Shown here: positions 1,894 through 31,535 of the stretch, in pieces
Numbering within the stretch: the first letter of the stretch is position 1
How the letters are laid out: every line of letters starts with the position of its first letter
NCBI RefSeq assembly: GCF_000145275.1
Contig: NC_014393.1
Location: 1,119,367-1,151,366 of the forward strand
Length of the DNA: 32,000 nucleotides
Reading direction: 5' to 3'
From: Clostridium cellulovorans 743B
GTDB lineage: Bacteria; Bacillota; Clostridia; Clostridiales; Clostridiaceae
Made by a program: the position numbers and the translations under genes
The notes under the pieces: model-generated
Told to the model about the DNA's origin: nothing
Databases searched by the model: none
The model's input: the letters and a program-made list of their open reading frames with translations, nothing else

Positions 1894-1952
1894 ATTTCAT
1901 GGTGAGCCTAGAAAACAAAGCTATATTTGATATGTTTATAAGTTTTATATTG

Positions 1953-1982: not shown

Positions 1983-2027
1983 AACATAAAATTTTAAAAT
2001 TAATTGTAATTAGTTTGTTTTGTATCT

Positions 2028-2049: not shown

Positions 2050-2131
2050 AATTTGAAAGATTATTATATAATGGATATATGAATTAACATTCATTGAATA
2101 GATATTAAGTTGCTGTACTAGGGGGATAAAA

Positions 2132-2788: not shown

Positions 2789-2793
2789 TAGAT

Positions 2794-5204: not shown

Positions 5205-5247
5205 GGAGAACCAAGTTCTGATGAAAGAGGTTTTCCTTATTTTTTTG
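5205..5247 (+). terminator. Putative rho-independent terminator
   Basis: GGAGAACC (5205..5212) pairs with GGTTTTCC (5229..5236) including one G-U, followed by TTATTTTTTT. Confidence 0.5.
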
Positions 5248-5511
5248 TTTGAAGAGGCGTGTTAATGATAAATCTTAGCATAAACGATAGAGAGTTGTAC
5301 TATTAGTCATTGATTTTATTTTGATAAGTCTGTTTTTATAAGTAACAATGACATACCAAAAGTAATAATGTATTTACAAAATATGTTACAATAAAATTAG
5401 GAAGATATTTTAGTAATAGAAAAATAGTAGTTTGCAATGGGGATTATTACTTGAATAATGGGAGGCAATAATTTGATAGATAAAGGCTAAATAATAGGAA
5501 TAAATACTCAA

Positions 5512-6157
5512 GTGTGTGAAGAGGCTGAAGTTATTGAATCTACACTTAATTCAAGGGTTTTTGTTGATAAATATACAAGAATTGAACACAGTGAATTAGG
5601 AGAAAAATTAAGGATAGAACGTAATAATCAAATTGTGTATTCATATAGGGGCAGATATTGCTATACAGGTGCAAATACAGTTATAAAGAATGCTCGTCTT
5701 GAAAGTTTTGTTTCAATAGCATGGAATGTTAGTATTGGTGGAAATACACATGATTTAAATCATATTACAACCCATAGTTTTCTTGTATACCCAAAATGGG
5801 AGATGGGAGATGGGAGGAAACGGAAACTGGAAATCGGCATCTGATGAATGTGAAATTGGGAATGATGTATGGATTGGTGCTGGAGCTAATATTTTAAGAG
5901 GAGTAACCATTGGGAATGGAGCAGTAATTGGAGCTTCAAGTGTAGTTACGAAAGATGTACCACCATATGCAATTGTAGTAGGTAATCCGGCAAAAATAGT
6001 GCGTTTACGATGCAAAGAAGAATGGATTGAGCGGTTGCAAAAGTTAAAGTGGTGGGAGTTACCAGAGGAAGTTATTCGTAATAATCTAGATCTTTTTAAA
6101 GAAGCGTTAACGAATGATGTAATAGAAAAGATTGAAAATATAAAAGCAAATCTCTAA
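5512..6157 (+). pseudogene. Hexapeptide-repeat xenobiotic acyltransferase (Vat/CatB-like), frameshifted
   Basis: ORFs 5512..5844 and 5783..6157 overlap in different frames. Together they give one XAT-like protein ([15 protein letters not shown] / [52 protein letters not shown]). The 5' end is uncertain (GTG start, no clear RBS). Confidence 0.8.
5796..5816 (+). repeat. ATGGGAG x3 tandem heptamer at the frameshift point
   Basis: Read directly: units at 5796..5802, 5803..5809 and 5810..5816. Removing one unit joins ..YPKWEMG to [21 protein letters not shown] in a single frame. Confidence 0.9.
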
Positions 6158-9320: not shown

Positions 9321-10544
9321 GTGAAAGTTTTGAAAAATAGATTTAAATCAGTATTTATAGAAGATTTTGATGAAATGATTTCACCAAAGTTTCCTGTGGT
9401 ATTTGGTGTTGTACTAATTTATCTTGCTACTGTATTTGTGCAAAGTTCGGGAAAGTTATCTTTTCATGAGACTATAGGATTTACAATAGTTATGCTAATC
9501 CAAATTCTAGTATTTTTATTTTCTAACAAAATATTTAAGCATAAGTATTGGATTTACTTTATTGTGCAGGGAATAATAACCTTTGACTATGCCATAATAG
9601 CCCATGAGGGATATAAAACTATAGTTCTTGGGTTAGTGCCTCTTTTAATCATTCAAAGTATGATTGTTTATAATGATGCTATTAAAGTTATTCTTACCTC
9701 AATGTTTTTCTATAGTATTTTTGGTGGCACTATCATTATCATCAATGGCTTCCATGAATTAATTCAGTCTTTGCCACTGATTATAATAATAACTATAGCC
9801 ATGCGTGCATATGCAATCTTTTATTTTAAGCAAGTGAAGTTGCGGATACAAACTCAGAAGGTTTTAAAGGAATTAGAGTTAGCTTATGAGAAGGTTGAAG
9901 AGCTAACCTTAGCTAATGAGAGACAGAGAATGGCTAGAGATTTGCATGACACCCTTTCTCAAGGTCTTGCAGGATTGATAATGCAACTTGAAGCAATAAA
10001 TGCTAATTTAAGTAAGGAGAATGTGAAACGAGCTAATGAGATAGTTGAAAAATCAATGGAACATGCAAGAAGAACCTTGGCAGATTCTAGGCTTGTTATA
10101 AATGATCTAAGAAGTTATGAAAAAAGAAAAATGGATTTAAATAAGTCTTTAGAAAATGAAATAGATACTTTTAAGAATGTATCTAATGCTTTTATTTCAA
10201 AAGACATTAACATAGAAGCCCAAATATCTTCAAGGATAATTAAACAGATGGTATACATTGTGAGAGAAGCTCTAAATAATATAGCAAAACACGCAAAGGC
10301 TGAAAATGTAGTTGTCAAAATAATAGAAATCAATAATAAAATTAATATAAATATTTCTGATGATGGTGTAGGGTTTGATATTAGGATTTTAGATAAGTTA
10401 TTTGGACATTACGGTATAGTGGGGATTACCGAGCGTGTAAAGGCAATTAATGGTGAAATCAAAATAGAAAGTAAACGGAAGGTTGGAACAAATATAAATA
10501 TCATTATACCAATAGAGAAAGGAATAGATGAGGAAAATGGATAA
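9321..10544 (+). CDS. Sensor histidine kinase, HisKA_3 (NarX/LiaS/DesK-like) with polytopic N-terminus
   Basis: About 5 predicted TM helices, then H-box RMARDLHDTLSQGL and HATPase blocks REALNNIAKHA, DDGVGF, GIVGITERV. The start may be GTG 9321 or the in-frame TTG 9330. Confidence 0.88.
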   Translation: MKVLKNRFKSVFIEDFDEMISPKFPVVFGVVLIYLATVFVQSSGKLSFHETIGFTIVMLIQILVFLFSNKIFKHKYWIYFIVQGIITFDYAIIAHEGYKTIVLGLVPLLIIQSMIVYNDAIKVILTSMFFYSIFGGTIIIINGFHELIQSLPLIIIITIAMRAYAIFYFKQVKLRIQTQKVLKELELAYEKVEELTLANERQRMARDLHDTLSQGLAGLIMQLEAINANLSKENVKRANEIVEKSMEHARRTLADSRLVINDLRSYEKRKMDLNKSLENEIDTFKNVSNAFISKDINIEAQISSRIIKQMVYIVREALNNIAKHAKAENVVVKIIEINNKININISDDGVGFDIRILDKLFGHYGIVGITERVKAINGEIKIESKRKVGTNINIIIPIEKGIDEENG

Positions 10545-17924: not shown

Positions 17925-18197
17925 AAAAAGGCCATGAAAAGAGCAGTAGTTATTTTTAAAACTTACAGAGAGTTCCTTTTGCTGAGATGGAACAGTGGAC
18001 AATTTAATGAAACAAGTCTTGGAGCTGCATACGGATCCTATTTTATCCATAGGTGATGCTATGACGTTTGTTCACGTTACAGAACTAGGGTATAATTTTG
18101 TACTTGATAAGGTTAGTATGGTGACATACTAATGAAATAGGGTGGCAACGCGGTATAATCGCCCCTACAAATTATTTGTAGGAGGTGTTTTTTTTAC
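17925..18197 (+). promoter_or_regulatory. T-box riboswitch leader, probable Met (AUG) specifier
   Basis: Stem I elements GAAAAGAGCAGTAG and CAGAGAG..GCTGAGA. Candidate specifier TTA-ATG-A with ATG at 18007..18009. Conserved T-box sequence AAATAGGGTGGCAACGCGG (18135..18153). Terminator CCCCTACAAA/TTTGTAGGAGG (18162..18185) followed by a long T-run. Confidence 0.8.
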
Positions 18198-18242
18198 GTT
18201 TTTTTATGCAAAGATAGGATTATATTTTAAGGAGTGTTCATT

Positions 18243-20234
18243 ATGAAAGATAAAAAAATAGAAAGACCTATATTTCCTAAAAAAGCTATTATAACTGCGG
18301 GAATGCCATATGGTAATAAAGATTTACATTTTGGTCATGTAGGTGGCGTGTTTGTTCATGCTGATACCTTCGCAAGATTTTTAAGAGATAGAATTGGAAA
18401 TGAAAATGTTATATTTGTCTCAGGAACAGATTGCTATGGCTCACCTATTTCAGCGAGTTATTTAAAGCTTGTAGAGGAAGGAAAATATGAAGGGTCTATA
18501 GAGGAGTATGTTCGTGAATATCATGAAAAACAAAAGGAAGTTTTAGAGAAATACGAAATGAGCATGAATCTATACGCAGCTTCTGCCTTGGATAGAGCTG
18601 GTGAAATTCATAAAGGTGTATCGGAAGAAATATTTAATAAGTTATATGACAATGGGTATTTAGCAAAAGCTTCTTCACCACAGTTTTATGACCCTGATTT
18701 TAAGGTGTTTCTAAATGGCAGGCAAGTAGTTGGGAAATGTCCTATTGAAGGGTGTAGCTCAGACAAAGGTTATGCAGATGAATGTGATTTAGGTCATCAA
18801 TATATGCCAGATGAATTAATTGACCCAAAGAGTATTTTATCTGGGAAAACACCTGAATTAAGAAAGGTGACAAATTGGTATTTTAAATTAGAGGAGTATA
18901 ACAATACCTTAGCTGAAAGGGTAGATTATTTAAGGGCAAATTCTAACTTACGAAAAAATTTATTAAATACCATAGAAGAATCTCTAAAACCACCAGTCAT
19001 TTTTGTAAAACGTAAGCAACTAGAAGGTATTACAGATTTAGAAGAAAAATTACCGAAGCATAGGACGATTGATGAACCTAAAAAGCCTTCTATTACTTTT
19101 GTGTTTGAAAGTCTAGAGGATAGAGATATTGCAAGAGGGGTATTTGATGAAGTTGGAGTTCGTTTTAGAACCGGTAAGACCTTAGTACCTTTTAGGTTAT
19201 CAGGAAATGTTGAGTGGGGTATACCAGTGCCAGATAAGGAAGAGCTGAAAGCTTTAACCTTTTGGGTTTGGCCTGAATCTTTATGGGCTCCTATTTCTTT
19301 TACAAAAACATATCTTGAAACCATAGGTAAGAATCCTGACCAATGGACAGAGTGGTGGCATTCCGAGGATTCAAAGGTATATCAATTTATTGGAGAAGAT
19401 AATGTTTATTTTTACGGGATTGCTGAAATGGCAATGTTTATGGCTTTAGAGGGGATTAAAGCTGGAGATAAAATAGATTGGGATAAGATAAATCTTCCAC
19501 ACTTGATTGCTAACAGCCATCTATTATTTATGAATAAAAAAGCAAGTAGTAGTGGTGCTGTAAAACCACCTATGGCAAGAGAATTATTAGAATATTATAC
19601 ACCAGAGCAATTACGTATGCATTTCCTGAGCTTAGGACTTTCAAAGGGAAGTGTTAGTTTTATGCCACAAGTATTCATGGAGGAAAAAGATAAACAAGGC
19701 CCTGATACAGTTTTAAAAGATGGCAATTTGTTGACTAACGTATTTAATAGACTTGTCCGTTCTTGTTTTTACACGGCACAAAAGCATTTTAATGGTACAA
19801 TACCAGTAGGTGAAATTAGTGATAGTATTATGGAAGAATCAAAAGAAGCTATTCTTACCTATGAAAGGCATATGTATAATCACGAATTTCATAGCTTAAT
19901 TTACGTTTTAGATAGCTACATTCGTAATATGAACAAGTATTGGGTAAATAATATGAGAGTAGCAGATACTAGCGATGATAATGCACTTAGAAAACAAGTT
20001 CTGATAGATGCCTTTCATGCCGTTAGAACTGTTACAACTTTAATTCATCCAATTGCACCAAAGAGCTGTGAAAAGGTAAGAGAATATCTAAATGTTAATG
20101 AAAACCTTTGGAATTGGGAATATATTTTTGAGCCAGTTTATAAATTTATAGTTGATCAAACTATGCATAAGTTAAAGTTTTTAGAGCCACGAGTGGACTT
20201 TTTTGAAAAGCATCAATCACAAATTTCTTTCTAG
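18243..20234 (+). CDS. metG: Methionyl-tRNA synthetase (E. coli-like core, no C-terminal tRNA-binding domain, atypical signature motifs)
   Basis: ATG 18243 lies 8 nt after AAGGAG (18229..18234). HIGH motif as HFGH (18327..18338). Knuckle region GKCPIEGCSSDKGYADECDLGH..PDELIDPKSILSGKTP parallels E. coli MetRS. The KMSKS position reads KASSS (19539..19553). Confidence 0.8.
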   Translation: MKDKKIERPIFPKKAIITAGMPYGNKDLHFGHVGGVFVHADTFARFLRDRIGNENVIFVSGTDCYGSPISASYLKLVEEGKYEGSIEEYVREYHEKQKEVLEKYEMSMNLYAASALDRAGEIHKGVSEEIFNKLYDNGYLAKASSPQFYDPDFKVFLNGRQVVGKCPIEGCSSDKGYADECDLGHQYMPDELIDPKSILSGKTPELRKVTNWYFKLEEYNNTLAERVDYLRANSNLRKNLLNTIEESLKPPVIFVKRKQLEGITDLEEKLPKHRTIDEPKKPSITFVFESLEDRDIARGVFDEVGVRFRTGKTLVPFRLSGNVEWGIPVPDKEELKALTFWVWPESLWAPISFTKTYLETIGKNPDQWTEWWHSEDSKVYQFIGEDNVYFYGIAEMAMFMALEGIKAGDKIDWDKINLPHLIANSHLLFMNKKASSSGAVKPPMARELLEYYTPEQLRMHFLSLGLSKGSVSFMPQVFMEEKDKQGPDTVLKDGNLLTNVFNRLVRSCFYTAQKHFNGTIPVGEISDSIMEESKEAILTYERHMYNHEFHSLIYVLDSYIRNMNKYWVNNMRVADTSDDNALRKQVLIDAFHAVRTVTTLIHPIAPKSCEKVREYLNVNENLWNWEYIFEPVYKFIVDQTMHKLKFLEPRVDFFEKHQSQISF

Positions 20235-20453: not shown

Positions 20454-21221
20454 CCACCTGTAGATGTAGTTATTTACAGGTGGTTATATTTTTGTTTTAC
20501 GAATACCACAGGTTTTACCTGTGGTTCTAAAAAGCTTCTAGCGATGAGTAGAAAAAAAGAATACCTCCAATGTAAAATGGTAGTAGGTTTTCCGACCACA
20601 ACCAAAAGTACAAAGGAGGTATATCCGTAATGGATAATAGTAGTTTAGCACATAGTAAATGGAATTGTAAATATCACATAGTCTTCGCACCAAAGTATAG
20701 GAGACAAATCATATATGGAAAAATAAAAGCGGATATAGGGGTAATACTTAGAAAGTTATGTGAACATAAAGGAGTAGAAATTATTGAAGCAAATGCATGT
20801 AAGGATCATATACATATGCTTGTAAGTATACCTCCGAAGTTAAGTGTCTCTCAGTTTATGGGGTATTTGAAAGGTAAGAGTTCATTGATGATTTTTGACA
20901 GACATGCAAATTTGAAATATAAATATGGGAATAGGCAATTTTGGTGTAAAGGCTATTACGTTGATACAGTTGGAAGAAACAAAAAGATAATAGAAGAATA
21001 CATAAAGAATCAAATACAGGAAGATTTAGCATATGAACAAATGAGCTTGAAAGAATTTATTGACCCGTTTACGGGTGAATCAGTAAACAAAGGCAAAAAA
21101 TAAAGCACCTTTTAGGTGCAGCCAGTAAAGGTATGCGGTTGGCAAACCGCTCAATGTGCGAGTAGCACGGCCAGTAACATGCCCTTATAGGGCTAAAGCA
21201 AACCACCCGTTTGACGGGTGG
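20454..21221 (+). mobile_element. IS200/IS605-family insertion sequence (IS200-type, tnpA only); boundaries approximate
   Basis: A Y1 transposase gene is flanked by subterminal hairpins. Left: CCACCTGTA..TACAGGTGG (20454..20483, followed by a T-rich run) and CCACAGG/CCTGTGG (20506..20524). Right: GCACCT/AGGTGC (21105..21119), GCGGTT/AACCGC (21135..21150) and CCACCCGT/ACGGGTGG (21203..21221). There are no terminal inverted repeats, as expected for this family. Confidence 0.8.
20630..21103 (+). CDS. tnpA: IS200-family Y1 (HUH) transposase TnpA
   Basis: 157 aa with WNCKYHIVFAPKYRR, the HUH motif DHIHMLVSIPPK, and a catalytic-Tyr region GYYVDTVG. RBS AAAGGAGG. Confidence 0.92.
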   Translation: MDNSSLAHSKWNCKYHIVFAPKYRRQIIYGKIKADIGVILRKLCEHKGVEIIEANACKDHIHMLVSIPPKLSVSQFMGYLKGKSSLMIFDRHANLKYKYGNRQFWCKGYYVDTVGRNKKIIEEYIKNQIQEDLAYEQMSLKEFIDPFTGESVNKGKK

Positions 21222-21352: not shown

Positions 21353-21700
21353 ATGCCAAGGAAAGATTCTATTGATATTGGAGAACTAACGGATTCAGCT
21401 TTTTATATTCTATCTAGCGTCATTGAAGAAAAGCATGGATACCTAATTATGAAAACTATTGAGAAGTTTACTAATAATGAAGTTACTATTGGACCTGCAT
21501 CACTTTATACAACACTGAAAAAGCTTTTATCAGCAGAGTTAGTGGAGTTAAGCCCTAGTGCAGAGGAAAATAAAAAGGTATATAAAATAACAGGTAAAGG
21601 GCGAGAAATGCTCATAAAAGAGATTGAACGTAAAAAGCAGATGGTGAAATTCGCTGAGAATTGTTTTGAATTAGAAAAGGGGGATATTCATGGACAATAA
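21353..21700 (+). CDS. PadR-family transcriptional regulator
   Basis: 115 aa. Winged-helix segment HGYLIMKTIE..GPASLYTTLKKL and a C-terminal helix. RBS GGAAGGAG. Confidence 0.85.
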   Translation: MPRKDSIDIGELTDSAFYILSSVIEEKHGYLIMKTIEKFTNNEVTIGPASLYTTLKKLLSAELVELSPSAEENKKVYKITGKGREMLIKEIERKKQMVKFAENCFELEKGDIHGQ

Positions 21701-22415
21701 ATATTTAATAATTAATGGCCTTGCCTTTAGTGAAGAAAGTGATATGGAGAAATTAAAAAATTACGCCAGCAAAGGTTGGATATTAGAAGAGATAAAATAC
21801 GGTTTTTTCTATAAGTTAAAAAAAGATAAGCCACAGGATATAATATATACCTTGGATTATCAATCAGAGGCAAATGAAGAGTACTTTACTATATTTAAAG
21901 AAGCGGGATGGAGTCCCGTGGTTTCTATACAAAATTACATGCATATTTTTTCAGCAAAGGCTGGGACTAATCCTATTTATAGTGATAGTGCATCAGAAAT
22001 AGATAAATATGAAAGCATGAGAAACTTAACAAAGAAAGGCACCATTGTTTCTTTAGTAATAGCTATAGCATTAATAGCGTTGTTAGCTGTTTCTTTAATA
22101 GCTATAAGACCTATGTTTTTAATTATCTTGGGACTACTAATAATTGATATGTTTGTGTTTGTTTTTAACTTTATGCCTTACATAGCATATAACTCAAGGA
22201 TTAAGGAAATAAAAAAATATGGTAAGTGTAAAAGTGCAAAAGTAAATAATAAAATTTCATGGAAATTATATATATTCGCAGGGCTTATGCTTTGTATTTT
22301 AGGAGTCTTATATTTAATTTATAAAAAGGTTTTTGGAATATTTTACATGGCTTTAGGCATAATTTATATAGCTTTAAGTGTAAAGTATTATAAGAAATAT
22401 AAAAAGTCTTTATAA
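21690..22415 (+). CDS. DUF2812-like membrane protein (usual PadR partner)
   Basis: Overlaps the PadR stop by 11 nt. The N-terminal soluble domain (FSEESDMEKLKNYASKGWILEE) and C-terminal TM helices match the architecture commonly found next to PadR genes. Confidence 0.65.
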   Translation: MDNKYLIINGLAFSEESDMEKLKNYASKGWILEEIKYGFFYKLKKDKPQDIIYTLDYQSEANEEYFTIFKEAGWSPVVSIQNYMHIFSAKAGTNPIYSDSASEIDKYESMRNLTKKGTIVSLVIAIALIALLAVSLIAIRPMFLIILGLLIIDMFVFVFNFMPYIAYNSRIKEIKKYGKCKSAKVNNKISWKLYIFAGLMLCILGVLYLIYKKVFGIFYMALGIIYIALSVKYYKKYKKSL

Positions 22416-22435
22416 ATTAATTAAGGGGAATGGTT

Positions 22436-22918
22436 ATGGGCAATAAGGCAACTTTAATAGTTTGTGCATCAGTACATCATAAAAATACTATAAAAATTGC
22501 TAATGCAATTAGTGACATATTAGAGGCTGATGTAATAGAACCAAAGGATTTTGATATTGAAAGTATATCTAGATATGACTTGATTGGGTTTGGTTCGGGT
22601 ATATATAATGGAAAACATCATGAGAGTATATTAAATTTGGTTAGCAGTATTAATAAACAAAATAATAAGAAAGCGTTTATCTTTTCAACAGCAACTATTC
22701 CATTAGAAGTTCCACATAAAACTCTTAATGAAATGTTGATTGAAAAAGGTTTTGATGTAATTGGGCATTTTTGCTGTAAAGGCTTTATGGATTACAGTTT
22801 TACAAAATACCTATTTAGAGGCTTAAATAAAGGAAGACCAAATAATAAAGATTTTGAAAGAGCGCGTCAATTTGCTATGAAAATAAAACAAACGCTACAA
22901 GCATCTTCATTTTCATAA
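22436..22918 (+). CDS. Flavodoxin-family protein
   Basis: ATG 22436 lies 7 nt after AAGGGG. The ORF track ATG at 22430 is too close to the RBS. Flavodoxin-like pattern LIVCASVHHKNT..., YDLIGFGSGIY. Confidence 0.7.
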   Translation: MGNKATLIVCASVHHKNTIKIANAISDILEADVIEPKDFDIESISRYDLIGFGSGIYNGKHHESILNLVSSINKQNNKKAFIFSTATIPLEVPHKTLNEMLIEKGFDVIGHFCCKGFMDYSFTKYLFRGLNKGRPNNKDFERARQFAMKIKQTLQASSFS

Positions 22919-23096: not shown

Positions 23097-23702
23097 TTAA
23101 GTTCTTTTTTTTACAAACTTCCTTGCAACATAAAGACATAAGCATATTACTAAAATCGAAGCAATGATATCTGAGTAAAAGTCCATAAAATGGAGCACAT
23201 CTTCCCAGGACTCTCCAAGAATTGCTCCTGCATATACCAGCAATGTGTTCCAAATAAGAGTTCCTGCTGTGGTGTATATTAGAAAAACACTAAACCTCAT
23301 ATTTGACATGCCAGCTGGGATTGAAATTAAGCTTCTGACCAAGGGAATCATTCTGCAGAAAAATATAGTTCTGTTCCCATAGCGATTAAACCAACTATTG
23401 GCTTTATGAATGTCGCTTACCTTAACTCTAAGAATATGTCCATAGCGACTAATTATCCTTTCTAATTTATTTACATTAAGTAACTTGCCAATATTGTAAA
23501 GTATAGCAGCACCAGTTACAGAGCCAGCAGTGGCAGCGATAATTACCCCTAGAATAGTCATGTGTGTATTTGTGGTCATGAATCCCCCAAAGGTAAGAAC
23601 TATCTCAGAAGGAATAGGTGGAAAAACATTTTCCAGTAAAATCATTAAAAAGGTACCGAAGTAACCGTAGTTCTCCATAAAATTTGTAATCCAATTGTCC
23701 AT
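23097..23702 (-). CDS. DedA-family membrane protein
   Basis: The N-terminus ENYGYFGTFLMILLENVFPPIPSEIVLTFGGF and the FFCRMIPLVRSLISIPAG block are typical of the DedA/SNARE-associated family. Confidence 0.85.
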   Translation of the reverse strand: MDNWITNFMENYGYFGTFLMILLENVFPPIPSEIVLTFGGFMTTNTHMTILGVIIAATAGSVTGAAILYNIGKLLNVNKLERIISRYGHILRVKVSDIHKANSWFNRYGNRTIFFCRMIPLVRSLISIPAGMSNMRFSVFLIYTTAGTLIWNTLLVYAGAILGESWEDVLHFMDFYSDIIASILVICLCLYVARKFVKKRT

Positions 23703-23944
23703 AATGCAATCCTCACTTTTGGCATAGTTTATATAGAAGCGTATAATTAAATTATGGCCATTTTTTATGAAAATGACGGAGCTTTAAAGTTAATTATAGA
23801 GGCTATACTATTGACTTATGCAATTTTATCTTTAGATATAACTGGAAGTATATTAAACGACCTAATATGATAAATATAACTATATCAGCTAAAGGATAAA
23901 TTATCAATAGATTTAGTTGTTTTACAAATTTTGTTAAAAGGGTT

Positions 23945-23987
23945 CAGCATTTCAGTTGCCATTTATGGCAAGTTAGATGCTGTTTTT
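23945..23987 (+). other. Imperfect 38-bp palindrome plus T5 run (terminator-like) upstream of the RiPP-like locus
   Basis: CAGCAT..TTGCCAT-TT-ATGGCAA..ATGCTG (23945..23982), followed by TTTTT (23983..23987). No annotated plus-strand gene lies upstream. Confidence 0.35.
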
Positions 23988-24210
23988 AGTATCTTGAGAA
24001 TAATTTGAACATGTTGCTTATTTTGGGTGTTAATATTGTATCAGATCAATCAAAGAGATGTGAGAAAGAAAGGTAAGAATATACATTATTTAATATAACT
24101 TAGAATAAGCCTTGTCCGAAAATTATACGTGAAAGGCAAATTTATATATCATACAACAGTTAGTTTAGTTGGTTAGTAATATCTAATTTAATCAAAAAGG
24201 TGGAATGATA

Positions 24211-25470
24211 ATGATTAATAATAATAAAGTTACCAATGAAGTTAAGTATTATTTAAGCAATAAAGTTAAGCATCATTTAAGCAATAATGCCATTGATGAA
24301 ATCAAGTTATGCAAGGTCATTATTAGCTTATCTCATAATTATAAAATCGAGAATTTAGTAAAGGCAATAAAAGGCTTACCAGATATAAATATAGAAGCAA
24401 TTGATAATACAGAATATTTTGTATTTGCATCACTTACACCTGAACAAATTAATTTACTAGAACATATTCCAGAGGTTAGGAATGTATGGATTGATAAAGA
24501 AGTAGAAAAAATGGATTATGAAGTTTTAAAAACTATAAATGAGCCAGCTTTTCTTTTTGATGGAACTGAATTTTGTAATGATATAACATGGGCTGTTTTA
24601 GATGATGGAATTGATAAAATGCATGATGCGCTTAAATATTCAAATGTAATAGACATTGATCTTACAGGAGAGGGACCCACAGGTAAACATGGTACACATG
24701 TAGCTGGAATAATTGCTGGTTGGGATCCTAGTAATCATTTTTCAGGGGTTGCACCTAAATGTAAATTATATAATTTTAAAGTAATTAGTGAAAATTCGTC
24801 AAGTTCCCTTAGTCTTTGTATAAAAGCTATGGAACAGATAAGGAAGATTAACAGTGAATCAAATGAATTAGTTATACATGGTGCAAATTTAAGTTTCGGT
24901 GCAGCAAATTCAATTAAAGAATTTTATTCTGGACATAGTCCTATTTGTGAAGAGGCCAATAGATTAGTGGATTCAGGAGTAGTTGTATGTGTGGCAGCAG
25001 GAAATTATGGAGCTCAGGCATTTGAGGTACCAGGTGATGATATCAGTCCCAAAATATGGGCAAATTATGAGATGATTTCTGTGACGGATCCGGGTACTGC
25101 AGAAAAAGTAATTACAGTAGGTTCAACTTATAGAATTGAACCTGAAAAGTATGGGATTTCTGTATTTTCCTCTAAAGGGCCTACTGGTGATGGTAGGATA
25201 AAACCAGATTTAGTAGCGCCGGGTGACTGTATTTCTTCAGCGTTTCTTAATAATTCTTATATATCAGCAAGTGGGACAAGTTGTGCAACACCATTTGTTT
25301 CAGGTGCGGTAGCTCAACTTTTACATAGCTATCCACAATTAATTGGGAATCCAAGTAAAGTAAAAGAAATTATTATTTCATCATGCAAAGATTTGAAAAG
25401 GGATAATTATTTTCAAGGACATGGATTACTAGACTTGGGAAAAGCTCTTGAATTGGCAAAAGAGAGCTAA
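24211..25470 (+). CDS. S8 (subtilisin-like) serine peptidase with I9-like propeptide and no signal peptide
   Basis: Catalytic triad contexts AVLDDGID, HGTHVAGIIAG, SGTSCATPFVSGAVAQLL, with oxyanion Asn in GANLSFG. ATG 24211 lies 7 nt after AGGTGG; ATG 24205 is too close. The N-terminus is hydrophilic and contains a 24-bp tandem repeat (24240..24287, VKYYLSNK/VKHHLSNN). Confidence 0.88.
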   Translation: MINNNKVTNEVKYYLSNKVKHHLSNNAIDEIKLCKVIISLSHNYKIENLVKAIKGLPDINIEAIDNTEYFVFASLTPEQINLLEHIPEVRNVWIDKEVEKMDYEVLKTINEPAFLFDGTEFCNDITWAVLDDGIDKMHDALKYSNVIDIDLTGEGPTGKHGTHVAGIIAGWDPSNHFSGVAPKCKLYNFKVISENSSSSLSLCIKAMEQIRKINSESNELVIHGANLSFGAANSIKEFYSGHSPICEEANRLVDSGVVVCVAAGNYGAQAFEVPGDDISPKIWANYEMISVTDPGTAEKVITVGSTYRIEPEKYGISVFSSKGPTGDGRIKPDLVAPGDCISSAFLNNSYISASGTSCATPFVSGAVAQLLHSYPQLIGNPSKVKEIIISSCKDLKRDNYFQGHGLLDLGKALELAKES

Positions 25471-25509
25471 TTTTTACCTTATTTAGCCACTTGAAAGGAG
25501 GTGAAAAAG

Positions 25510-25716
25510 ATGAGTAAGAATATAGATGATTTAATAAAAAACCTACGTAGTGCAGCAGATCAATTAGATTCAATAAAAGATTCAGCTTCAGATGAAGATA
25601 TTAAAAAAGTAATAGAAAATAATGTTGAACCTATGAGTTGCTGTGGTACTTGTACTGGTGTACCACCAATACCACCATGTGAAAATACATGTGTAAGTCT
25701 TCCACCATTCATGTAG
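25510..25716 (+). CDS. Candidate RiPP precursor peptide (68 aa: acidic Cys-free leader, Cys/Thr/Pro-rich core)
   Basis: GGAGG (25497..25501) lies 8 nt before ATG 25510. Sequence: MSKNIDDLIKNLRSAADQLDSIKDSASDEDIKKVIENNVEP / MSCCGTCTGVPPIPPCENTCVSLPPFM. It sits immediately upstream of two rSAM-SPASM genes. Confidence 0.75.
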   Translation: MSKNIDDLIKNLRSAADQLDSIKDSASDEDIKKVIENNVEPMSCCGTCTGVPPIPPCENTCVSLPPFM

Positions 25717-25778
25717 AAATTTTTTATTACATTATGTACTCATACAATCTATCATAAATTGTATGCTATGTACACATG

Positions 25779-25801
25779 TTTGGCGGCTTTCAGCCGTCAA
25801 A
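25779..25801 (+). promoter_or_regulatory. Intercistronic hairpin between the precursor and the first maturase gene
   Basis: TTTGGCGGCT (25779..25788) pairs with AGCCGTCAAA (25792..25801): 10 bp including one G-U, 3-nt loop, no T-run. A second 8-bp hairpin CATACAAT/ATTGTATG lies at 25741..25765. Confidence 0.5.
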
Positions 25802-25857
25802 CAATCTATTAATAAATTCGTAATGTAACTTTCATTTTATAAATGTAGGAGGGAAAT

Positions 25858-27240
25858 ATGAGAGAGGATTATTATCCATTATTAAAAGATACAGTAAGAA
25901 TAAAAAAAATGCCTTCAGGTTGTTGGGTTGTAGATTTAGTTGCAGATAATGGAGCGGTTATACATCCATTCGAGGCATTCGCTTTATCTCTCTGTACAGG
26001 TGAATATACTCTTGAAAATCTGAAATATATATTTTCATCAGTTTTTAGTATAGAAAAAAGCGACTATATTGATACTATTTTTAATAAGCTCGACAGATAT
26101 ATTATATGGAAGGACAAGGTTTCAGCTTGTAACCATAAATATGATCCAAAAACATTTTTATATGATATTAAAACTACAGAAAATTCTTCTAAAAACAGAT
26201 TTGATAGCCCTGGTGAGATGACTATAATTCTAACACATAACTGCAATTTTAGATGTATATATTGTTTCAACAATTCAGGAGAGGCAAAAACTGTTCAGTT
26301 AAATACCAATGAATGGCTTGAGGTAATAAAGCAAGCTAGGGAATTAGGAATAGTAAAATGTACTGTAAGTGGTGGAGAGCCAATGTTACATCCCGGATTT
26401 TTTGATATTCTAAGAGCTATTACGGATAGTGGAATGTCTGTATACATATGCACAAATGGAAGTCTTGTTGATGAAAATGTGGTAAAACAATTTAAGGAAA
26501 TAGGATTGCCATGTGTTCAATTTAGTCTTGATGCTGGTACACCAGAAATTCATGATAAAATGGCAACTGTAAAAGGAACATATCCAAAAGTAATTAATGC
26601 TATTAAACTCCTTGTAGGTGCTGGGATAGATGTATATATCAAGTCGGTAATTACACCTGTCAATTATAGTGATATAAGTAATCTTATAGATTTATGTAGT
26701 GAATTAGGTGTGAAACAATTAGTACTTGATAGATTTGATCTTAGCAATGCAGGCAGAGGAGGTACTGAACTTTTTATGACAAGAAAGCAAGAGCTTGACT
26801 TAGAAGATTTAGTACAAACAAAGATAAAAGAACTCTCAGGGAAAATGATACTTAAGGCAGCTACAGTTCAAAGATGTTGGTCTGGTGAGGATAATATAGT
26901 AGTATGTGGAGCATTTAGACGTTCTATAAATATTCTTCCGAATGGTGATATAAGTGTATGTGAAAAACTCATCGAAGTACCTGAGATGACAGCAGGTAAT
27001 GTAAAAGACAATACACTTGAGGAGATATGGAATTCTAAAAAAGTTAGTGATATTGTTAATCCAAGTAAAGATATTATAGACGAACCTTGTAAAACTTGTG
27101 AACACTTAGATCATTGCCATACAGGATGTTATGCTTTATCTTTACTTGTCAGTGAAAATCCATACTCTATAGATCCAAGATGTTGGAAAGGAAATTATTC
27201 TAATAAATTTTTTATGGATTCAACTTATGAAAGGATATAG
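25858..27240 (+). CDS. Radical SAM / SPASM-domain peptide maturase with N-terminal RRE(PqqD)-like extension, paralogue 1
   Basis: CNFRCIYC (26242..26265), SGGEPMLHP, CX12GX4C (CGAFRRSINILPNGDISVC) and CX2CX5CX3C (CKTCEHLDHCHTGC). About 110 aa precede the rSAM core. RBS AGGAGGG. Confidence 0.88.
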   Translation: MREDYYPLLKDTVRIKKMPSGCWVVDLVADNGAVIHPFEAFALSLCTGEYTLENLKYIFSSVFSIEKSDYIDTIFNKLDRYIIWKDKVSACNHKYDPKTFLYDIKTTENSSKNRFDSPGEMTIILTHNCNFRCIYCFNNSGEAKTVQLNTNEWLEVIKQARELGIVKCTVSGGEPMLHPGFFDILRAITDSGMSVYICTNGSLVDENVVKQFKEIGLPCVQFSLDAGTPEIHDKMATVKGTYPKVINAIKLLVGAGIDVYIKSVITPVNYSDISNLIDLCSELGVKQLVLDRFDLSNAGRGGTELFMTRKQELDLEDLVQTKIKELSGKMILKAATVQRCWSGEDNIVVCGAFRRSINILPNGDISVCEKLIEVPEMTAGNVKDNTLEEIWNSKKVSDIVNPSKDIIDEPCKTCEHLDHCHTGCYALSLLVSENPYSIDPRCWKGNYSNKFFMDSTYERI

Positions 27241-27242
27241 TT

Positions 27243-28646
27243 ATGTCAATTATAAAATTTGAAGTGAATTCTAGGGAAAGACACCTTTATCCAGTGCGAG
27301 CTAGATATATAAGGACTCATATTATGAATAATTATAATATGATATCTAATTTTAGAGATGGTGGATCTGAATATATATCAACACAAAAAGCATTGATTTT
27401 TGAATTATTTAGCGGCAAATATGATATTGAAACTATTACTAAAATATTTTCAGGTACATTTGAGATTGATTTAGAAAAATCAGAACAATGTATAAAAGCT
27501 GTTCTGGATGAATACGCTTCACATATAACATTCTATCCACATGAAATCCAAACAGATTTATCCTGTGATCCCATGAGGATTCTGAAAAAGTCTTCTACAA
27601 AGTGGCAATATAATCCTGTGAGATATGAAAGTCCTGAGGAGTTAGTGCTATCCCTTTCATATGTGTGTAATCATAAATGTATTTATTGTTGTAATAGTTC
27701 TGGAAGCCGTATAGAAGATGAACTTTCGTTTAATGATTGGATTAAAGTAATTGACGAAGCTGCAGATTTAGGGGTTGAAACAATACTTTTTTCTGGTGGC
27801 GAACCATTAATGTATCCAGACTTTATAAAGTTAGTAAAGCGAACAAAAGATAATGGTATATATCCAATAGTTTCAACTAATGGTACATTGATATCTGAAG
27901 AAACTGCAAAACAACTTTCAGAAGCAGGTATAGACTTTGTTCATTTAAGTATGTCGGCAGCAAATGAAGAATTATATGATAGTATTATAGGTTATAAAGG
28001 TAATCTTCCTAAAGTGAAAGCTGCAATAAAAGCATTAAAAGATAATAATATTTATATTAGGTTAAAAGTGGTTTTAATGCCTGTGAATATAAAGCATATT
28101 GAGGAATTGTTAGATTTCTGTATTGAAAATAAAGTAGATTGCGTACATTTAGCGCCATTTATACTTACACATATATCACGAAATGGGAAAGAACTCATGC
28201 CCTCAGTAAACGATTTAAATAACTTGAAAAAAGTGATAAACAGTAAGAGAAATAAAATTAAAATATTAGAACCTTCTGTTGAGGGAATGTGCTGGAGTGG
28301 ACCAACTGACATTGTAAAATGTGGTGGAATAAAATCTAAACTGACGATTATTTCAAATGGGAATATAACACTTTGTGAGACTCTAGGTAAGACCCCTAAT
28401 TTTATATTAGGTAATGTGAAAACAACAAAAATAAAAGATATATGGAACTCTGATTTACCTGATAATATATTAAAGGTAAATATGAAATTAGTTGAAGAAC
28501 CCTGCAAAAGTTGTGAGTATTTAGAAGGGTGTAAAACAGGTTGTTTTATGTGTTCATTAATATATTCTGATAATTCATATTCAGTTGATCCAAGATGTTG
28601 GAAAGCTAATATCTCGAATAATGCTTATAGAAGTATTTATAGTTAG
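27243..28646 (+). CDS. Radical SAM / SPASM-domain peptide maturase with N-terminal RRE-like extension, paralogue 2
   Basis: CNHKCIYC (27666..27689), SGGEPLMYP, CGGIKSKLTIISNGNITLC and CKSCEYLEGCKTGC. It shares the C-terminal DPRCWK.N.SN tail with paralogue 1. It starts 2 nt after the preceding stop. Confidence 0.88.
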   Translation: MSIIKFEVNSRERHLYPVRARYIRTHIMNNYNMISNFRDGGSEYISTQKALIFELFSGKYDIETITKIFSGTFEIDLEKSEQCIKAVLDEYASHITFYPHEIQTDLSCDPMRILKKSSTKWQYNPVRYESPEELVLSLSYVCNHKCIYCCNSSGSRIEDELSFNDWIKVIDEAADLGVETILFSGGEPLMYPDFIKLVKRTKDNGIYPIVSTNGTLISEETAKQLSEAGIDFVHLSMSAANEELYDSIIGYKGNLPKVKAAIKALKDNNIYIRLKVVLMPVNIKHIEELLDFCIENKVDCVHLAPFILTHISRNGKELMPSVNDLNNLKKVINSKRNKIKILEPSVEGMCWSGPTDIVKCGGIKSKLTIISNGNITLCETLGKTPNFILGNVKTTKIKDIWNSDLPDNILKVNMKLVEEPCKSCEYLEGCKTGCFMCSLIYSDNSYSVDPRCWKANISNNAYRSIYS

Positions 28647-28708
28647 CTTTTATTACTAAGTTTCAATTAAATTAGAATAATAATTTATTTAATAATAAGG
28701 AGACAAAA

Positions 28709-29842
28709 ATGAAATATATTTTTTTAAGCGATGTTCATATAGGTGAAAATATTCCAGAAAACTGGTATCAGAAATCTGTTCATCAAGTATACCTTAAAGC
28801 TATTTTACAATACATACAAGCAAATGCACAGCAAATACAAGATGTTGTTATTCTTGGAGATTGGTTTGATTCATGGATGTATCCGCCTGAACCTCAAATT
28901 TCAGCTACAGTAACTGAAATCATAAATAATAATCTCGAAGTGTTTACTGTGCAGGATGATGGAGATTTTATTACTTGTATGGATAGTATAAAAGGAGACT
29001 TATATTATGTTCGTGGAAATCATGATATGACTATAGATTTCAATGAATTAAATAATTATATAAAGCTTCATAGTAAGAAAAACAAACAAGTAGTATGTTT
29101 GGATGAAGCTTATGGGGTAAATGGCATTTATGCTGAGCATGGTCATTACTTTGATTTACTTTGTAAACCTGATCTCGGTGACAAAAATCTGTACAAGCCG
29201 TTACCTATAGGTTATTTTGTTTCAAGAGTTTCAGCTTTGTATTGTCAACAAAAATTGCAAGAGGCTGGTAATCAGAATGCAGCTCAACTACCTGGTCAAG
29301 GAAACCCTGATATGTCCAGTATTTTGAAGGCAATAGTGTCAAATTATTCTGGAGATTATAGTAATTTTGCAAATGTGATAATGTCAACCCTTTCAAATTT
29401 AGTTAAGTGTCCGGATATGACTAAATTAGTTTTTACAATGCCTGATGGTACAGTAATAAATGCAGCAGATGTTGCAAAGATGTATCCTGATATTTTGAAA
29501 AATCAGCAAGACTTAACTAGCTTACTTGTAGTTGATGCGGACAACTCTTTAGACAATAATGGTGAAAATTTATGTAATAGTAGTTATAAAGGAATTAAAA
29601 ATAGAGTTGTAGTAATGGGACATACGCATGTAGATAGACTTCAAAGTCACTATACATTATTTAATGGTAAGACTATTTACGTCAATTCAGGTTTTATGTG
29701 TCCAGCAATTCCAGACATAAGTACTGGTATGGTAATGACATTTACTGAAGTTGAACAAAATGGTTCAACATTTACAGTTAGGTTAAAGAAAGTTAATTAT
29801 CCAGGCACAAGTATATCAACGTTAACAGAAGCTACTATTTGA
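28709..29842 (+). CDS. Calcineurin-like metallophosphoesterase
   Basis: Metallophosphoesterase (MPE) motifs LSDVHIG, GDWFDSW, RGNHD, EHGH and MGHTH. RBS AAGGAG. No signal peptide. Confidence 0.8.
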   Translation: MKYIFLSDVHIGENIPENWYQKSVHQVYLKAILQYIQANAQQIQDVVILGDWFDSWMYPPEPQISATVTEIINNNLEVFTVQDDGDFITCMDSIKGDLYYVRGNHDMTIDFNELNNYIKLHSKKNKQVVCLDEAYGVNGIYAEHGHYFDLLCKPDLGDKNLYKPLPIGYFVSRVSALYCQQKLQEAGNQNAAQLPGQGNPDMSSILKAIVSNYSGDYSNFANVIMSTLSNLVKCPDMTKLVFTMPDGTVINAADVAKMYPDILKNQQDLTSLLVVDADNSLDNNGENLCNSSYKGIKNRVVVMGHTHVDRLQSHYTLFNGKTIYVNSGFMCPAIPDISTGMVMTFTEVEQNGSTFTVRLKKVNYPGTSISTLTEATI

Positions 29843-29937
29843 GATTAGATTATAATAAATTACTTAACGTCTTTACGGATAACTTACAGATTATAGTTTT
29901 AGGACAGTGCGTAGATTGTATAGAAGAAAGTATATAA

Positions 29938-30006
29938 GTTCCAATAATGTTTCTACACAAAGTTATATACTGTAGTTGAAATAAAGGTAGTTCATTTATT
30001 GGAACA
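29938..30006. repeat. Structured intergenic element, copy B
   Basis: GTTCCAATAATGTTTCTACA (29938..29957) matches 16941..16960 at 19 of 20 nt. Outer stem GTTCCAATAA / TTATTGGAAC (29997..30006) and inner stem CTACA / TGTAG (29971..29975). It lies between convergent genes. Confidence 0.6.
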
Positions 30007-30056
30007 GTTATACAAGATCATTGAAAGAATTAAATGAGCATACTTAATAGGGAAAG

Positions 30057-30731
30057 TTATTTAATGATACTCTCTACATAAAGAGTAAATGCAGTTTTTT
30101 TACTTTCATTGCCTTGTGCATCTTTATATACAGATATAAACTTTCCGTCTATATAAGAACTTTTTTTATTAAAGCTTGTGGTTCCATTAAAGTAAAATTG
30201 GGAACTAGAAGCTTTAATGTGTGTAACACTAAAAGTTGGATTAGTGTCGAGATTTGTTACTTTAAAAGTAGCTCCGTCCTCATTAATAGATAATTCTTTA
30301 GTGACTCTAGAACTTGCAGATAATTCTTTGGTGTCTCCAGAACTTACAGAAGATACTGAGAACGGATACTCGCAGCCAAATATAGGACTAGTGTTATTAA
30401 TTGCAAGAGCATTAGAAGAAGAAAGTTTGATAGCAAACATTAAGGGCTCATAAGGTACTATTTCAATCCAGCAATCTTCAAAACCTTGTCCAAAGCTTAA
30501 ATTAGTATCTATAATAATTTTTGACATATGATTATCTAAATATATTTCACCAGATACTTGTGGCAGGCATTCGGAAAGATTTTTGATTTTATTGTTGATG
30601 TCTAAGGAAAATTTAATGTTAGAGGTATTATCAGGGGTTGTTATGTATATTTCTGTAGAACTTAGCGTATTATTTTGAAACTTTGGATTAAAAATTACAT
30701 TTATAGAACTTGGTGTCTTTATATTTGTCAT
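30057..30731 (-). CDS. Hypothetical protein (224 aa, Ser/Thr/Asn-rich, no signal peptide)
   Basis: A strong RBS AAGGAG precedes the ATG on the minus strand. The gene lies 42 nt downstream of the LytTR regulator gene. I recognise no family. Confidence 0.7.
   Translation of the reverse strand: MTNIKTPSSINVIFNPKFQNNTLSSTEIYITTPDNTSNIKFSLDINNKIKNLSECLPQVSGEIYLDNHMSKIIIDTNLSFGQGFEDCWIEIVPYEPLMFAIKLSSSNALAINNTSPIFGCEYPFSVSSVSSGDTKELSASSRVTKELSINEDGATFKVTNLDTNPTFSVTHIKASSSQFYFNGTTSFNKKSSYIDGKFISVYKDAQGNESKKTAFTLYVESIIK
30288..30347. repeat. 30-bp tandem duplication inside the hypothetical CDS
   Basis: AGATAATTCTTTAGTGACTCTAGAACTTGC / AGATAATTCTTTGGTGTCTCCAGAACTTAC (26 of 30 identical). It encodes the ..TKELS.. 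decapeptide twice on the minus strand. Confidence 0.8.
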
Positions 30732-30773: not shown

Positions 30774-31535
30774 TTACAAACCAAAGAGGCTTTTAAAACT
30801 AGTCATATAACTTCTGCTTACAGTTATATCAGAGTTGGAATCTCCATCCATTATTAACTTAAAGGTGCTATTGAACCAAGGAATAATTTCAGCTATCTTT
30901 TTAGTATTCACGATGAAGCTTTTGTGACAGCGAAAGAAACTAAGTTCATTTAATCTATCCTCATAATAATTAAGAGTTTCTTTGCTAGTGTAAGTCTTTC
31001 CTTTACAGGTGTTAATTTTCACATAACCACATTCTGAAAAAATAAAGCTTATATCTTCAATATCGCAAAGAAAGATTCTATCATTTTCCCATAGAGGTAG
31101 CTTTGAAATATTAGTTTTCATAGCTTTTTCTTTTATAAATTGATTTTTTTTAAATTTTTCCTTGGTAGTTTGGTCAACAGAAAACTTACTTAGTCTTTTA
31201 ATTGTTGCTTTTATTCTTTGTGGATCGATAGGCTTTAGTATATAGTCGATAGCACTTAACTCGAAGGCTTTTATCGCATAGTCGTCATAGGCAGTAACAA
31301 AAACAATTTTCATTTCCTCGTCATGGGATAAGATTTCTGCTGCACAAGATAACCCGTCAATTTCAGGCATGGAGATGTCAAGAAAAACTGCATCAGGTTT
31401 GTCAGTAATAATTTTCTTGATAGCTTCCAATGAGTCTTGGTACATTCCTATAATTTCAATATCCTCTTCTTTTGATAAGTAGTATTTAAGGTTATTAAGA
31501 CTTGCTAATTCATCGTCTACAAGTATTACTCTCAT
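30774..31535 (-). CDS. LytR/AlgR-family response regulator (receiver plus LytTR DNA-binding domain)
   Basis: MRVILVDDE.., FLDISMPEIDG, and a C-terminal LytTR-like segment (FFRCHKSFIVN, ITVSRSY). Confidence 0.9.
   Translation of the reverse strand: MRVILVDDELASLNNLKYYLSKEEDIEIIGMYQDSLEAIKKIITDKPDAVFLDISMPEIDGLSCAAEILSHDEEMKIVFVTAYDDYAIKAFELSAIDYILKPIDPQRIKATIKRLSKFSVDQTTKEKFKKNQFIKEKAMKTNISKLPLWENDRIFLCDIEDISFIFSECGYVKINTCKGKTYTSKETLNYYEDRLNELSFFRCHKSFIVNTKKIAEIIPWFNSTFKLIMDGDSNSDITVSRSYMTSFKSLFGL

Follow-up and report, generated by a model that had tools for sequence, protein, structure and literature searches.

We analysed a 32,000-nt stretch of the genome of Clostridium cellulovorans 743B (contig NC_014393.1, positions 1,119,367 to 1,151,366; hereafter, the window) and found that a small open reading frame (ORF) at positions 25510–25716 of its plus strand is a genuine, conserved gene, which stands directly upstream of a gene for a radical S-adenosylmethionine (rSAM)/SPASM maturase here and in its relatives. 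The ORF probably encodes the precursor of a new family of peptides made by ribosomes and modified after translation (RiPPs) resembling the sactipeptides and ranthipeptides, whose maturases would install Cys-derived cross-links, an assignment that we make mostly by analogy.

The ORF specifies 68 amino acids followed by a stop codon (ADL50707.1/WP_010076448.1, annotated as hypothetical), and its ATG is preceded at 8 nt by a strong Shine–Dalgarno sequence, AGGAGG. The translation agrees exactly with that given in a first-pass annotation of the window, and all the features singled out there are present: Cys residues at positions 44, 45, 48, 57 and 61, the Thr-Cys pairs T47-C48 and T60-C61, the hydrophobic-Pro-Pro triplets V51-P52-P53, I54-P55-P56 and L64-P65-P66, and CCA as the codon of all six Pro residues of the core. 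Residues 1–42 (25510–25635, plus strand) form a putative leader, and S43–M68 (25636–25713, plus strand) a predicted core of 26 residues with five Cys, SCCGTCTGVPPIPPCENTCVSLPPFM, with an unmodified monoisotopic mass of 2652.12 Da; the boundary between the two was placed from the alignment of relatives described below. The leader had been described as acidic and amphipathic, and indeed it contains 6 K/R against 10 D/E (net charge −4), with hydrophobic residues at positions 5, 8, 9, 12, 15/16, 19 and 22, the i/i+3/i+4/i+7 pattern of an amphipathic helix-type segment. It carries the conserved motif [IL]xx[LV][IV]Kx[LF]RxAAxxLE, of which L12, R13, A15 and A16 are kept in the subtype to which the window peptide belongs (type A, see below).

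The uniform use of CCA in the core departs only mildly from expectation: this codon accounts for 46% of the Pro codons in nine neighbouring genes, which gives six out of six a probability of ~0.01; the leader residue P41 is encoded by CCT. The uniformity arises because VPP-IPP is encoded by a 9-bp tandem repeat, TACCACCAA/TACCACCAT, identical at eight of nine positions, which points to local duplication or conversion rather than to codon selection.

A word-seeded search with the single peptide as the query returned no relative, only the query itself. Relatives were reached via the maturase encoded immediately downstream, r1, which has ~50 relatives at 39–70% identity, with a homologous small ORF at the equivalent position in their loci. 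When eight such peptides were aligned and the alignment served as the profile query of a word-seeded search, 46 proteins were retrieved, the window peptide among them; an exhaustive hidden Markov model (HMM) scan of 1.84 billion representative proteins added 13 further divergent members, bringing the number of relatives to 58 (45 from the word-seeded profile and 13 from the exhaustive scan). Among the 1.84 billion representatives the family forms only 19 clusters at 50% identity and E ≤ 1e-3; it is real but rare. A metagenome scan, made with type A sequences only, returned three short contigs. The precursor has no match in Pfam or NCBIfam, and comparison of the 46 aligned precursors with the NCBIfam precursor models, including SCIFF, gave no match either.

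The first-pass annotation had made its proposal hinge on conservation of the Cys pattern. As can be seen from the 46-sequence alignment, C44, C45, C48, C57 and C61 are invariant throughout, and they are the only invariant residues of the core; P56 is conserved in type A. In a comparison of C. cellulovorans with C. felsineum, dN/dS was ~0.26 for the core and ~0.82 for the leader (a small sample), values that indicate, at the level of these sequences, purifying selection on the core; such a difference between leader and core is what a RiPP precursor would be expected to show. A near-identical metagenome copy of the locus (L001), essentially the same strain, has no differences in the precursor and is uninformative for selection.

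Not every feature of the window peptide defines the family. The three hydrophobic-Pro-Pro triplets are present as described, but only the [IV]-P-P before C57 is conserved. The positions of P52 and P65 are occupied by Ser in at least 90% of the members; elsewhere Pro occurs at position 52 in two members (P0104, with LPPTPP, and P0120, with VPPSPP) and at the equivalent of position 65 in two (P0101 and P0113). Two nearly invariant Ser are thus Pro here, and therefore either these Ser are dispensable or the product of this lineage is slightly different.

Some members depart further from the common pattern. Three distant ones (P0141, P0146 and P0147) have C-D-G-G-C in place of the opening CC-x-x-C and a C-terminal C-x-G-C-C-I, and retain the central hydrophobic-Ser-x-V-P-P-C. 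A high-G+C locus, L008, carries tandem precursor genes (5213–5422 and 5579–5788) with diverged cores, …CCGTCTLVSSIAPCMDACIAVSPLM and …CCASCTLISPLPPCANTCIQLPSGV; their dN/dS of ~1.1 suggests that these precursors may have diversified after duplication.

The ORF had been taken for a substrate-type precursor of the adjoining rSAM/SPASM enzymes, with homologues expected beside such genes, and both expectations were borne out. Wherever the flank downstream of the peptide gene is available, an r1-type rSAM/SPASM gene lies directly downstream of it, in 14 of 14 independent loci (those of the window, L007, L008, L089, L096, L100, L093, L094, L097, L090, L091, L092, L098 and L101), so that the precursor occupies a fixed position upstream of r1. 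In the window the cluster is compact and entirely on the plus strand, and consists of genes for an S8 protease, the precursor, r1, a second maturase (r2) and a metallophosphoesterase. As in RiPP systems in general, a short precursor with a variable leader and a conserved core adjoins modifying enzymes and a protease.

The loci fall into two subtypes. Type A, exemplified by the window, has a 26-residue, five-Cys core with the consensus S-C-C-G-T-C-T-[GL]-[VI]-S-x-[IV]-P-P-C-x-[NG]-[AT]-C-I-x-V-S-P-L-[FM] and two maturases, r1 and r2; loci with this core span 30% to 70% G+C. Type A loci also carry the S8 protease gene (seven of the seven that could be judged) and, in five of six, the metallophosphoesterase gene. 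Type B has a six-Cys core, for example YCCGSCVAVSSICTPDATPNKCKGGCTATSFAF, and three maturases; the S8 gene is present in none of five loci, and the accessory gene encodes a metallophosphoesterase (L091 and L101) or a DUF6765 protein (L090 and L092), with neither in L098. The number of maturases thus rises from two to three as the number of Cys rises from five to six. Because of this parallel, and because only the Cys are invariant, we favour Cys-centred cross-linking. As to possible donor–acceptor motifs of the ranthipeptide type, Cys-x(2-3)-Asp/Glu/Asn/Thr, type A cores keep T47 and have either A or T at position 60, whereas many members carry G instead of N59. The C-terminus is conserved as hydrophobic/aromatic, with the pattern SPL[FM] for type A and SF.[FIL] for type B.

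Both maturases of the window have intact domains and motifs. r1 (ADL50708.1; 25858–27240, plus strand) and r2 (ADL50709.1; 27243–28646, plus strand) are paralogues, with 34% identity along their whole length, and share a three-domain build: a RiPP recognition element (RRE)-like N-terminal domain, an rSAM core (C129-x3-C133-x2-C136 in r1 and C142-x3-C146-x2-C149 in r2) and a full SPASM domain. Both match the Pfam models Radical_SAM and SPASM. The seven Cys of the r1 SPASM domain are arranged as C350-x12-G-x4-C368, C411xxCx5Cx3C424 and C442, with equivalents in r2. The motifs CX3CX2C, CX12GX4C and CX2CX5CX3C and the final Cys are intact in all 21 complete maturases examined; the third maturase of L091 (r3) is split, and could be checked for CX3CX2C only. 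In a neighbour-joining tree of 22 maturases, r1 (CNF[RK]C...) and r2 (CNH[KR]C...) formed separate clades, both of which were represented in nine of the nine loci placed. By this tree r1 and r2 are ancient, separate orthologous lineages, and the third type B maturase is an r1-like duplicate.

The length of r2 differs between records, 467 aa in ADL50709.1 and 440 aa in WP_242655221.1. We favour the start of the 467-aa form because it lies 2 nt past the r1 stop codon and an equally tight junction recurs in L007, L008 and L089. Outside the cluster motifs, the r1 lineage has further conserved Cys: C22, invariant in 28 of 28 r1-family sequences, and C46, invariant in a 12-sequence N-terminal subset, are both located in the RRE-like domain, and C198, at least 90% conserved, is at a catalytic-site proximity position (see below).

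We compared the maturases with characterized enzymes. Neither r1 nor r2 reached any NCBIfam cut-off. The sub-threshold scores of r1 (bits versus cut-off) were 157.7/381.35 for PqqE, 154.4/265 for MftC, 122.2/625 for StsB, 98.4/850 for AlbA (residues 6–429), 91.6/300 for SkfB and 78.7/340 for PapB; GeoRSP was also among the top sub-threshold matches, and r2 scored below r1 for AlbA, SkfB and StsB. In a search of Protein Data Bank (PDB) sequences, CteB was a distant match (5.5e-09). A confident AlphaFold2 model of r1 (28 family members as input; pLDDT 90, pTM 0.89) predicts a β-β-β-α-α-α topology for the N-terminal domain. Foldseek aligned the entire model, with SuiB ranked best (E = 3e-24 over 464 columns, the N-terminal domain included), followed by PqqE, SkfB and CteB, all of them peptide maturases composed of RRE, rSAM and SPASM domains.

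Precord et al. (PMC10288494) took CteB as the reference for six catalytic-site proximity positions, which we mapped onto the maturases via HMM alignments. The signature of r1 is [F/Y]-[S/T]-C-S-E-K in all copies (F137-S171-C198-S223-E369-K370 in the window), and that of r2, read from four type A copies (five further r2 copies did not parse), is [C/A]-S-S-S-E-[A/T], with C-S-S-S-E-T in the window. The reference signatures are F-F-T-S-H-Q for CteB, Y-T-I-S-K-L for StsB, Y-T-F-S-Q for SkfB, S-S-I-S-H-A for PqqE and F-L-T-S-I-A for SuiB. As far as such alignments go, the Y/T/S positions may lean slightly to the sactisynthases, and the Cys and Glu-Lys appear unique among the signatures compared.

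The gene upstream of the precursor encodes an S8 subtilisin-like serine protease (24205–25470, plus strand; Peptidase_S8, 1.4e-43), a candidate leader peptidase. Its motifs are intact, with D133, H162, N266 and S359 (the catalytic triad and the oxyanion Asn) in DDG, HGTH, GNYG and GTSCATP, and the protein is predicted to be cytoplasmic, as neither a signal peptide nor a transmembrane segment was found by prediction. The ORF has in-frame ATGs at 24205 and 24211; the spacing from the Shine–Dalgarno sequence AAAGGTGGA is better for 24211, and the L001 copy is called as 419 aa. Translation therefore probably begins at 24211, to give 419 aa.

The column of M42 in the precursor alignment is a conserved Gln (Q or M, and Q in most relatives) and is followed by a nearly invariant Ser. 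The S8 gene is found only where this [QM]-S junction occurs, that is, in type A; the leader–core junction of type B is different. That S8 tracks the junction supports a putative role as the leader peptidase. The first-pass annotation had proposed that the adjacent S8 protease removes the leader near EP/M. The role suggested for the protease fits its distribution (seven of seven type A loci against none of five type B loci), but the alignment makes cleavage after M42, to give the core S43–M68, more likely than cleavage at the EP/M site. The absence of a double-Gly motif, remarked on in the same annotation, was confirmed: the leader has no GG. Nor did the window ORFs examined (all but a few short ones at 5.5–7.2 kb and at 17.2 kb) include a gene for an ABC transporter, a C39 peptidase or another exporter.

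A pathway consistent with these observations can be envisaged. The acidic amphipathic leader (residues 1–42) would dock on the RRE-like N-terminal domains of r1 and r2, which would use 5′-deoxyadenosyl radical chemistry and their auxiliary Fe–S clusters to cross-link the 26-residue core. The cross-links would most likely be several Cys-derived thioether bridges, of the sactionine or ranthionine type, and may span a hairpin that turns at the conserved Pro-Pro preceding C57. It is possible that r1 and r2 install different subsets of the links; it is also possible that they act as a complex, like TrnC/TrnD. The cytoplasmic S8 protease would then remove the leader, probably after M42, and the catalytically intact metallophosphoesterase may add a further step. 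The product may be bioactive.

Several points weigh against thioether bridges as the outcome of this pathway. Thioether formation is drawn from analogy, and nothing ties r1 and r2 specifically to thioether synthases. In HMM and PDB sequence searches they come closest to PqqE and MftC, which are C–C bond-forming or decarboxylating enzymes, and no curated sacti- or ranthisynthase cut-off is reached. Furthermore, the r1 and r2 signatures match none of those of CteB, StsB, SkfB, PqqE and SuiB, sharing two or three of the six positions with StsB and SkfB, and therefore the linkage chemistry is not assignable by analogy to a reference enzyme. The N-terminal domain of r1 has no Pfam PqqD/RRE match, and its alignment by hhalign with PqqD-bearing relatives was weak (E = 0.035), with the expected helix region aligned. 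No exporter or immunity gene is present among the window ORFs examined, and S8, r1, r2 and the metallophosphoesterase are all predicted to be cytoplasmic, with no signal peptide or transmembrane segment. Finally, the two nearly invariant Ser that are Pro in the window peptide would have to be non-essential modification sites, or this member is modified differently. The same precursor may, though we consider it rather unlikely, undergo non-thioether radical chemistry, such as formation of C–C or C–O links, epimerization, C-terminal oxidative decarboxylation or Cys oxidation, with the Cys serving as disulfides or metal ligands. This would suit the nearest family and PDB sequence matches (PqqE, MftC and GeoRSP), the best fold match, to the C–C cross-linker SuiB, and active-site signatures unlike those of known thioether synthases. 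It would also suit the conserved hydrophobic/aromatic C-terminus, SPL[FM] or SF.[FIL]; MftC acts on a C-terminal Val-Tyr. The odd number of Cys (five) misfits an all-disulfide product, yet does not demand thioethers. However, it is the Cys that are the sole invariant core residues, and the maturases increase from two to three with the step from five to six Cys, while the type A core has neither the conserved aromatic residue nor the Lys typical of C–C cross-linked RiPPs. In addition, StsB shows that full-length MftC-like proteins can be sactisynthases (PMC10288494).

Two further alternatives concern the function of the product and the identity of the gene. The product might be an intracellular or spore-associated peptide with a redox, cofactor-like or metal-handling role, matured wholly in the cytoplasm as are pyrroloquinoline quinone (PQQ) and mycofactocin. 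We regard this as improbable: the whole 26-residue core is conserved, as against one or two residues in PqqA and MftA, an MMPL-family transporter gene lies directly 3′ of the S8 gene in L100, and LytTR-type two-component systems flank both the window cluster and that of L091. These points stand against the lack of signal peptides and transmembrane segments in S8, r1, r2 and the metallophosphoesterase, the absence of genes for transport or immunity from the window ORFs examined, PqqE and MftC being the nearest curated families, and the position of the L092 cluster beside spoIIR, sleB and ypeB. Since such a role concerns function only, it is compatible with the Cys-derived cross-linking that we favour. 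That the ORF is a chance frame, or that the true substrate is encoded elsewhere, is scarcely credible. Its hypothetical annotation and its lack of a Pfam or NCBIfam match would allow this, but the strong Shine–Dalgarno sequence, the 58 homologues with invariant Cys in genomes of 30–70% G+C, the fixed place upstream of r1 in all 14 loci and the purifying selection on the core argue otherwise. Nor is there a competing candidate in the cluster, as no second small Cys-rich ORF is present in 23600–30100. The comparative data effectively refute a chance frame.

Within the reading as a modified, cross-linked precursor, there is some prospect, tentative and on the whole doubtful, that the system represents a distinct, unnamed RiPP class, with paralogues cooperating on a Cys5/Cys6 core, a new type or topology of cross-link (for example, vicinal Cys-Cys) and an unprecedented phosphoesterase step. 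The r1 signature, with its invariant Cys at proximity position 3 and the Glu-Lys after the auxiliary-cluster Cys, has no counterpart among characterized thioether or C–C synthases.

By its pathway logic, the system would be closest to thuricin CD, which has two rSAM enzymes, and to QhpC/D/E, which combines an rSAM thioether synthase with a subtilisin-type protease. With thuricin CD it shares two adjacent paralogous rSAM/SPASM maturases per operon and an N-terminal Cys cluster in the core. In thuricin CD each of the two components has its own precursor, the leader is of the GG type and export is by an ABC transporter. Unlike in thuricin CD, a single precursor is typical here, an S8 protease is encoded, no exporter was found among the window ORFs examined and the core has two extra C-terminal Cys. 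TrnC and TrnD act on thuricin CD only as a complex (PMC12093266), and r1 and r2 could plausibly do likewise.

The maturases resemble AlbA, SkfB and StsB in their RRE-like, rSAM and SPASM/twitch architecture and in the sub-threshold HMM matches, and the signature of type B r1 begins Y-T-x-S, as in StsB and SkfB. Like StsB, r1 and r2 are closer to MftC and PqqE than to the classical sactisynthases (PMC10288494). In contrast to the hairpin sactipeptide systems of subtilosin A, SKF and StsA, the scores are far under the cut-offs, the C, E and K at proximity positions 3, 5 and 6 are unique to the present family, and the precursor is unrelated. The candidate leader peptidase also differs, being of the S8 type; its subtilosin counterpart is AlbE/F, and these are M16-type proteases.

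Ranthipeptide systems (thermocellin/CteB, freyrasin/PapB and QhpC/D/E) are similar in having a Cys-rich core and an rSAM/SPASM enzyme, in their occurrence in Clostridia, and in the full-length fold match of r1 to CteB. QhpE, an S8 protease that partners the thioether synthase QhpD, provides a precedent for subtilisin-type leader removal; the QhpE model gave only a weak match. The differences from the ranthipeptides are the lack of a SCIFF model match, the lack of a clearly conserved Cx3[D/E/N] and the sharing of the CteB signature FFTSHQ at only two of six positions. A single maturase is typical of ranthipeptide systems.

SuiB is the best structural match of the maturases, PqqE and MftC are the best sequence matches, and the set of enzymes, all predicted to be cytoplasmic and with no dedicated exporter, is reminiscent of PQQ and mycofactocin. 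In contrast to the substrates of SuiB, PqqE and MftC, the precursor has no Lys/Trp, Glu/Tyr or C-terminal Val-Tyr to be acted upon, and has instead a Cys-rich core conserved as a whole; the PQQ and mycofactocin precursor motifs, E-x3-Y and C-terminal G-V-Y, are absent from it. A class I lanthipeptide was also considered, on account of the LanP-like S8 protease and a core with Ser/Thr and Cys, but the lanthipeptide domains LanB, LanC and LanM/LanKC/LanL were found neither in the window ORFs examined nor in the related loci. By the tests available, namely maturase cut-offs and precursor models, the system falls outside every named family.

We found no paper on the family. Six unnamed “new sactipeptide groups” are mentioned in PMC10288494 and may include it. 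Other clusters of C. cellulovorans figure in a survey of anaerobe RiPPs from 2014; the present cluster is not among the passages returned from that survey, which contain its sactipeptide table in part. The family is apparently a rare RiPP family that is undescribed. According to PMC10288494, clusters entered the RiPP-RaS atlas only with an ABC transporter nearby, and the Mitchell compendium only if an RRE could be recognized. Both surveys could miss the cluster, because no ABC transporter was found in it and the N-terminal domain has no Pfam PqqD match.

The spacer between the precursor and r1 contains a 12-bp stem–loop (25777–25803, plus strand), a candidate partial terminator or attenuator. 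The spacer folds with −33.6 kcal/mol (z = −4.2), and none of 200 shuffled sequences was as stable; a consensus terminator scan did not call the stem–loop, which has no T-run. A comparable hairpin follows the precursor in four of eight other loci tested (L007, L089, L092 and L096, and not L008, L090, L091 or L098), and that of L092, with its U-run, is a classical terminator. RiPP operons often use a leaky terminator to over-produce the precursor messenger RNA, and by analogy the stem–loop may set the precursor-to-enzyme ratio. Further upstream, in the 500-bp region preceding the S8 gene, lies an 18-nt imperfect inverted repeat (23945–23990, plus strand; CAGCATTTCAGTTGCCAT/ATGGCAAGTTAGATGCTG) followed by TTTTT. 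It is downstream of a strong promoter-like site (23719–23747), with no Rfam match there, and may be a terminator or attenuator in the 5′ region of the operon.

The last gene of the cluster encodes an orphan metallophosphoesterase (28709–29842, plus strand; Pfam Metallophos), a conserved accessory protein that is predicted to be cytoplasmic, with no signal peptide or transmembrane segment by prediction. All five of its motifs are intact (D8xH, G50DxxD, G103NHD, H144xH and G304HxH). The gene is syntenic in L007 (8821–9873), L089 (8895–10118) and L096 (10391–11467), is present in L091 (10335–11504) and L101 (9063–10229), and in L008 lies upstream on the opposite strand (1883–2857, minus strand); in L100 its place is taken by the MMPL-family transporter gene directly 3′ of the S8 gene. 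The protein is weakly LpxH-like, and a PDB sequence search gave marginal LpxH matches only. We know of no RiPP pathway that uses a metallophosphoesterase. For DUF6765, the PDB sequence search gave no match, and a comparison with Zn-dependent phospholipase C remained sub-threshold (E = 0.019). A PHP protein was considered as a third phosphoesterase fold of the clusters and dropped, as the gene in L098 is RNase RNM/pAp-phosphatase-like and on the opposite strand.

Other genes flank the cluster. A gene for a DedA/VTT-domain protein (UptA-like undecaprenyl-phosphate transporter) adjoins it at 23097–23702 (minus strand), and another is near the L008 cluster (10012–10515); the vicinity may be a coincidence or reflect a resistance function. 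On the other side are a LytTR-family response regulator gene (30774–31535, minus strand) and, beyond the window, a histidine kinase gene (11900–13822 in L001), with a similar arrangement in L091 (12227–13380). Loci for peptide pheromones or bacteriocins typically have LytTR two-component systems; a search for LytTR-type direct repeats upstream of the operon found none. Between these genes and the metallophosphoesterase gene, an ORF at 30057–30731 (minus strand) encodes 224 aa rich in Ser, Thr and Asn, with no NCBIfam match, and is split into calls of 127 aa and 69 aa in the L001 copy. The type B cluster of L092 stands immediately 3′ of spoIIR, a sleB-like gene and ypeB (1–2761 of L092). Further away in the window, a T-box leader (17925–18169, plus strand; RF00230, 105.9 bits) precedes a gene for a 666-aa Met-tRNA-ligase-like protein (18234–20234), which scores well under the MetG model cut-offs, and a gene for an IS200-like Y1 transposase (20630–21103, plus strand) lies between this gene and a PadR/DUF2812/flavodoxin trio (21353–22918).

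The family is small, sharply defined and outside every curated Pfam and NCBIfam model, yet it extends over genomes of 30–70% G+C. Much new enzyme chemistry has come from peptides modified by rSAM enzymes, as have narrow-spectrum antimicrobials or signals of anaerobes. We regard the family as a solid, well-delimited lead for genome mining and natural-product work, not yet as a surprise. If the chemistry turns out to be ordinary sactionine formation, it would simply be one more sactipeptide group. The rise in maturase number with Cys number, together with the metallophosphoesterase, could reveal a division of labour among rSAM enzymes on a single substrate.

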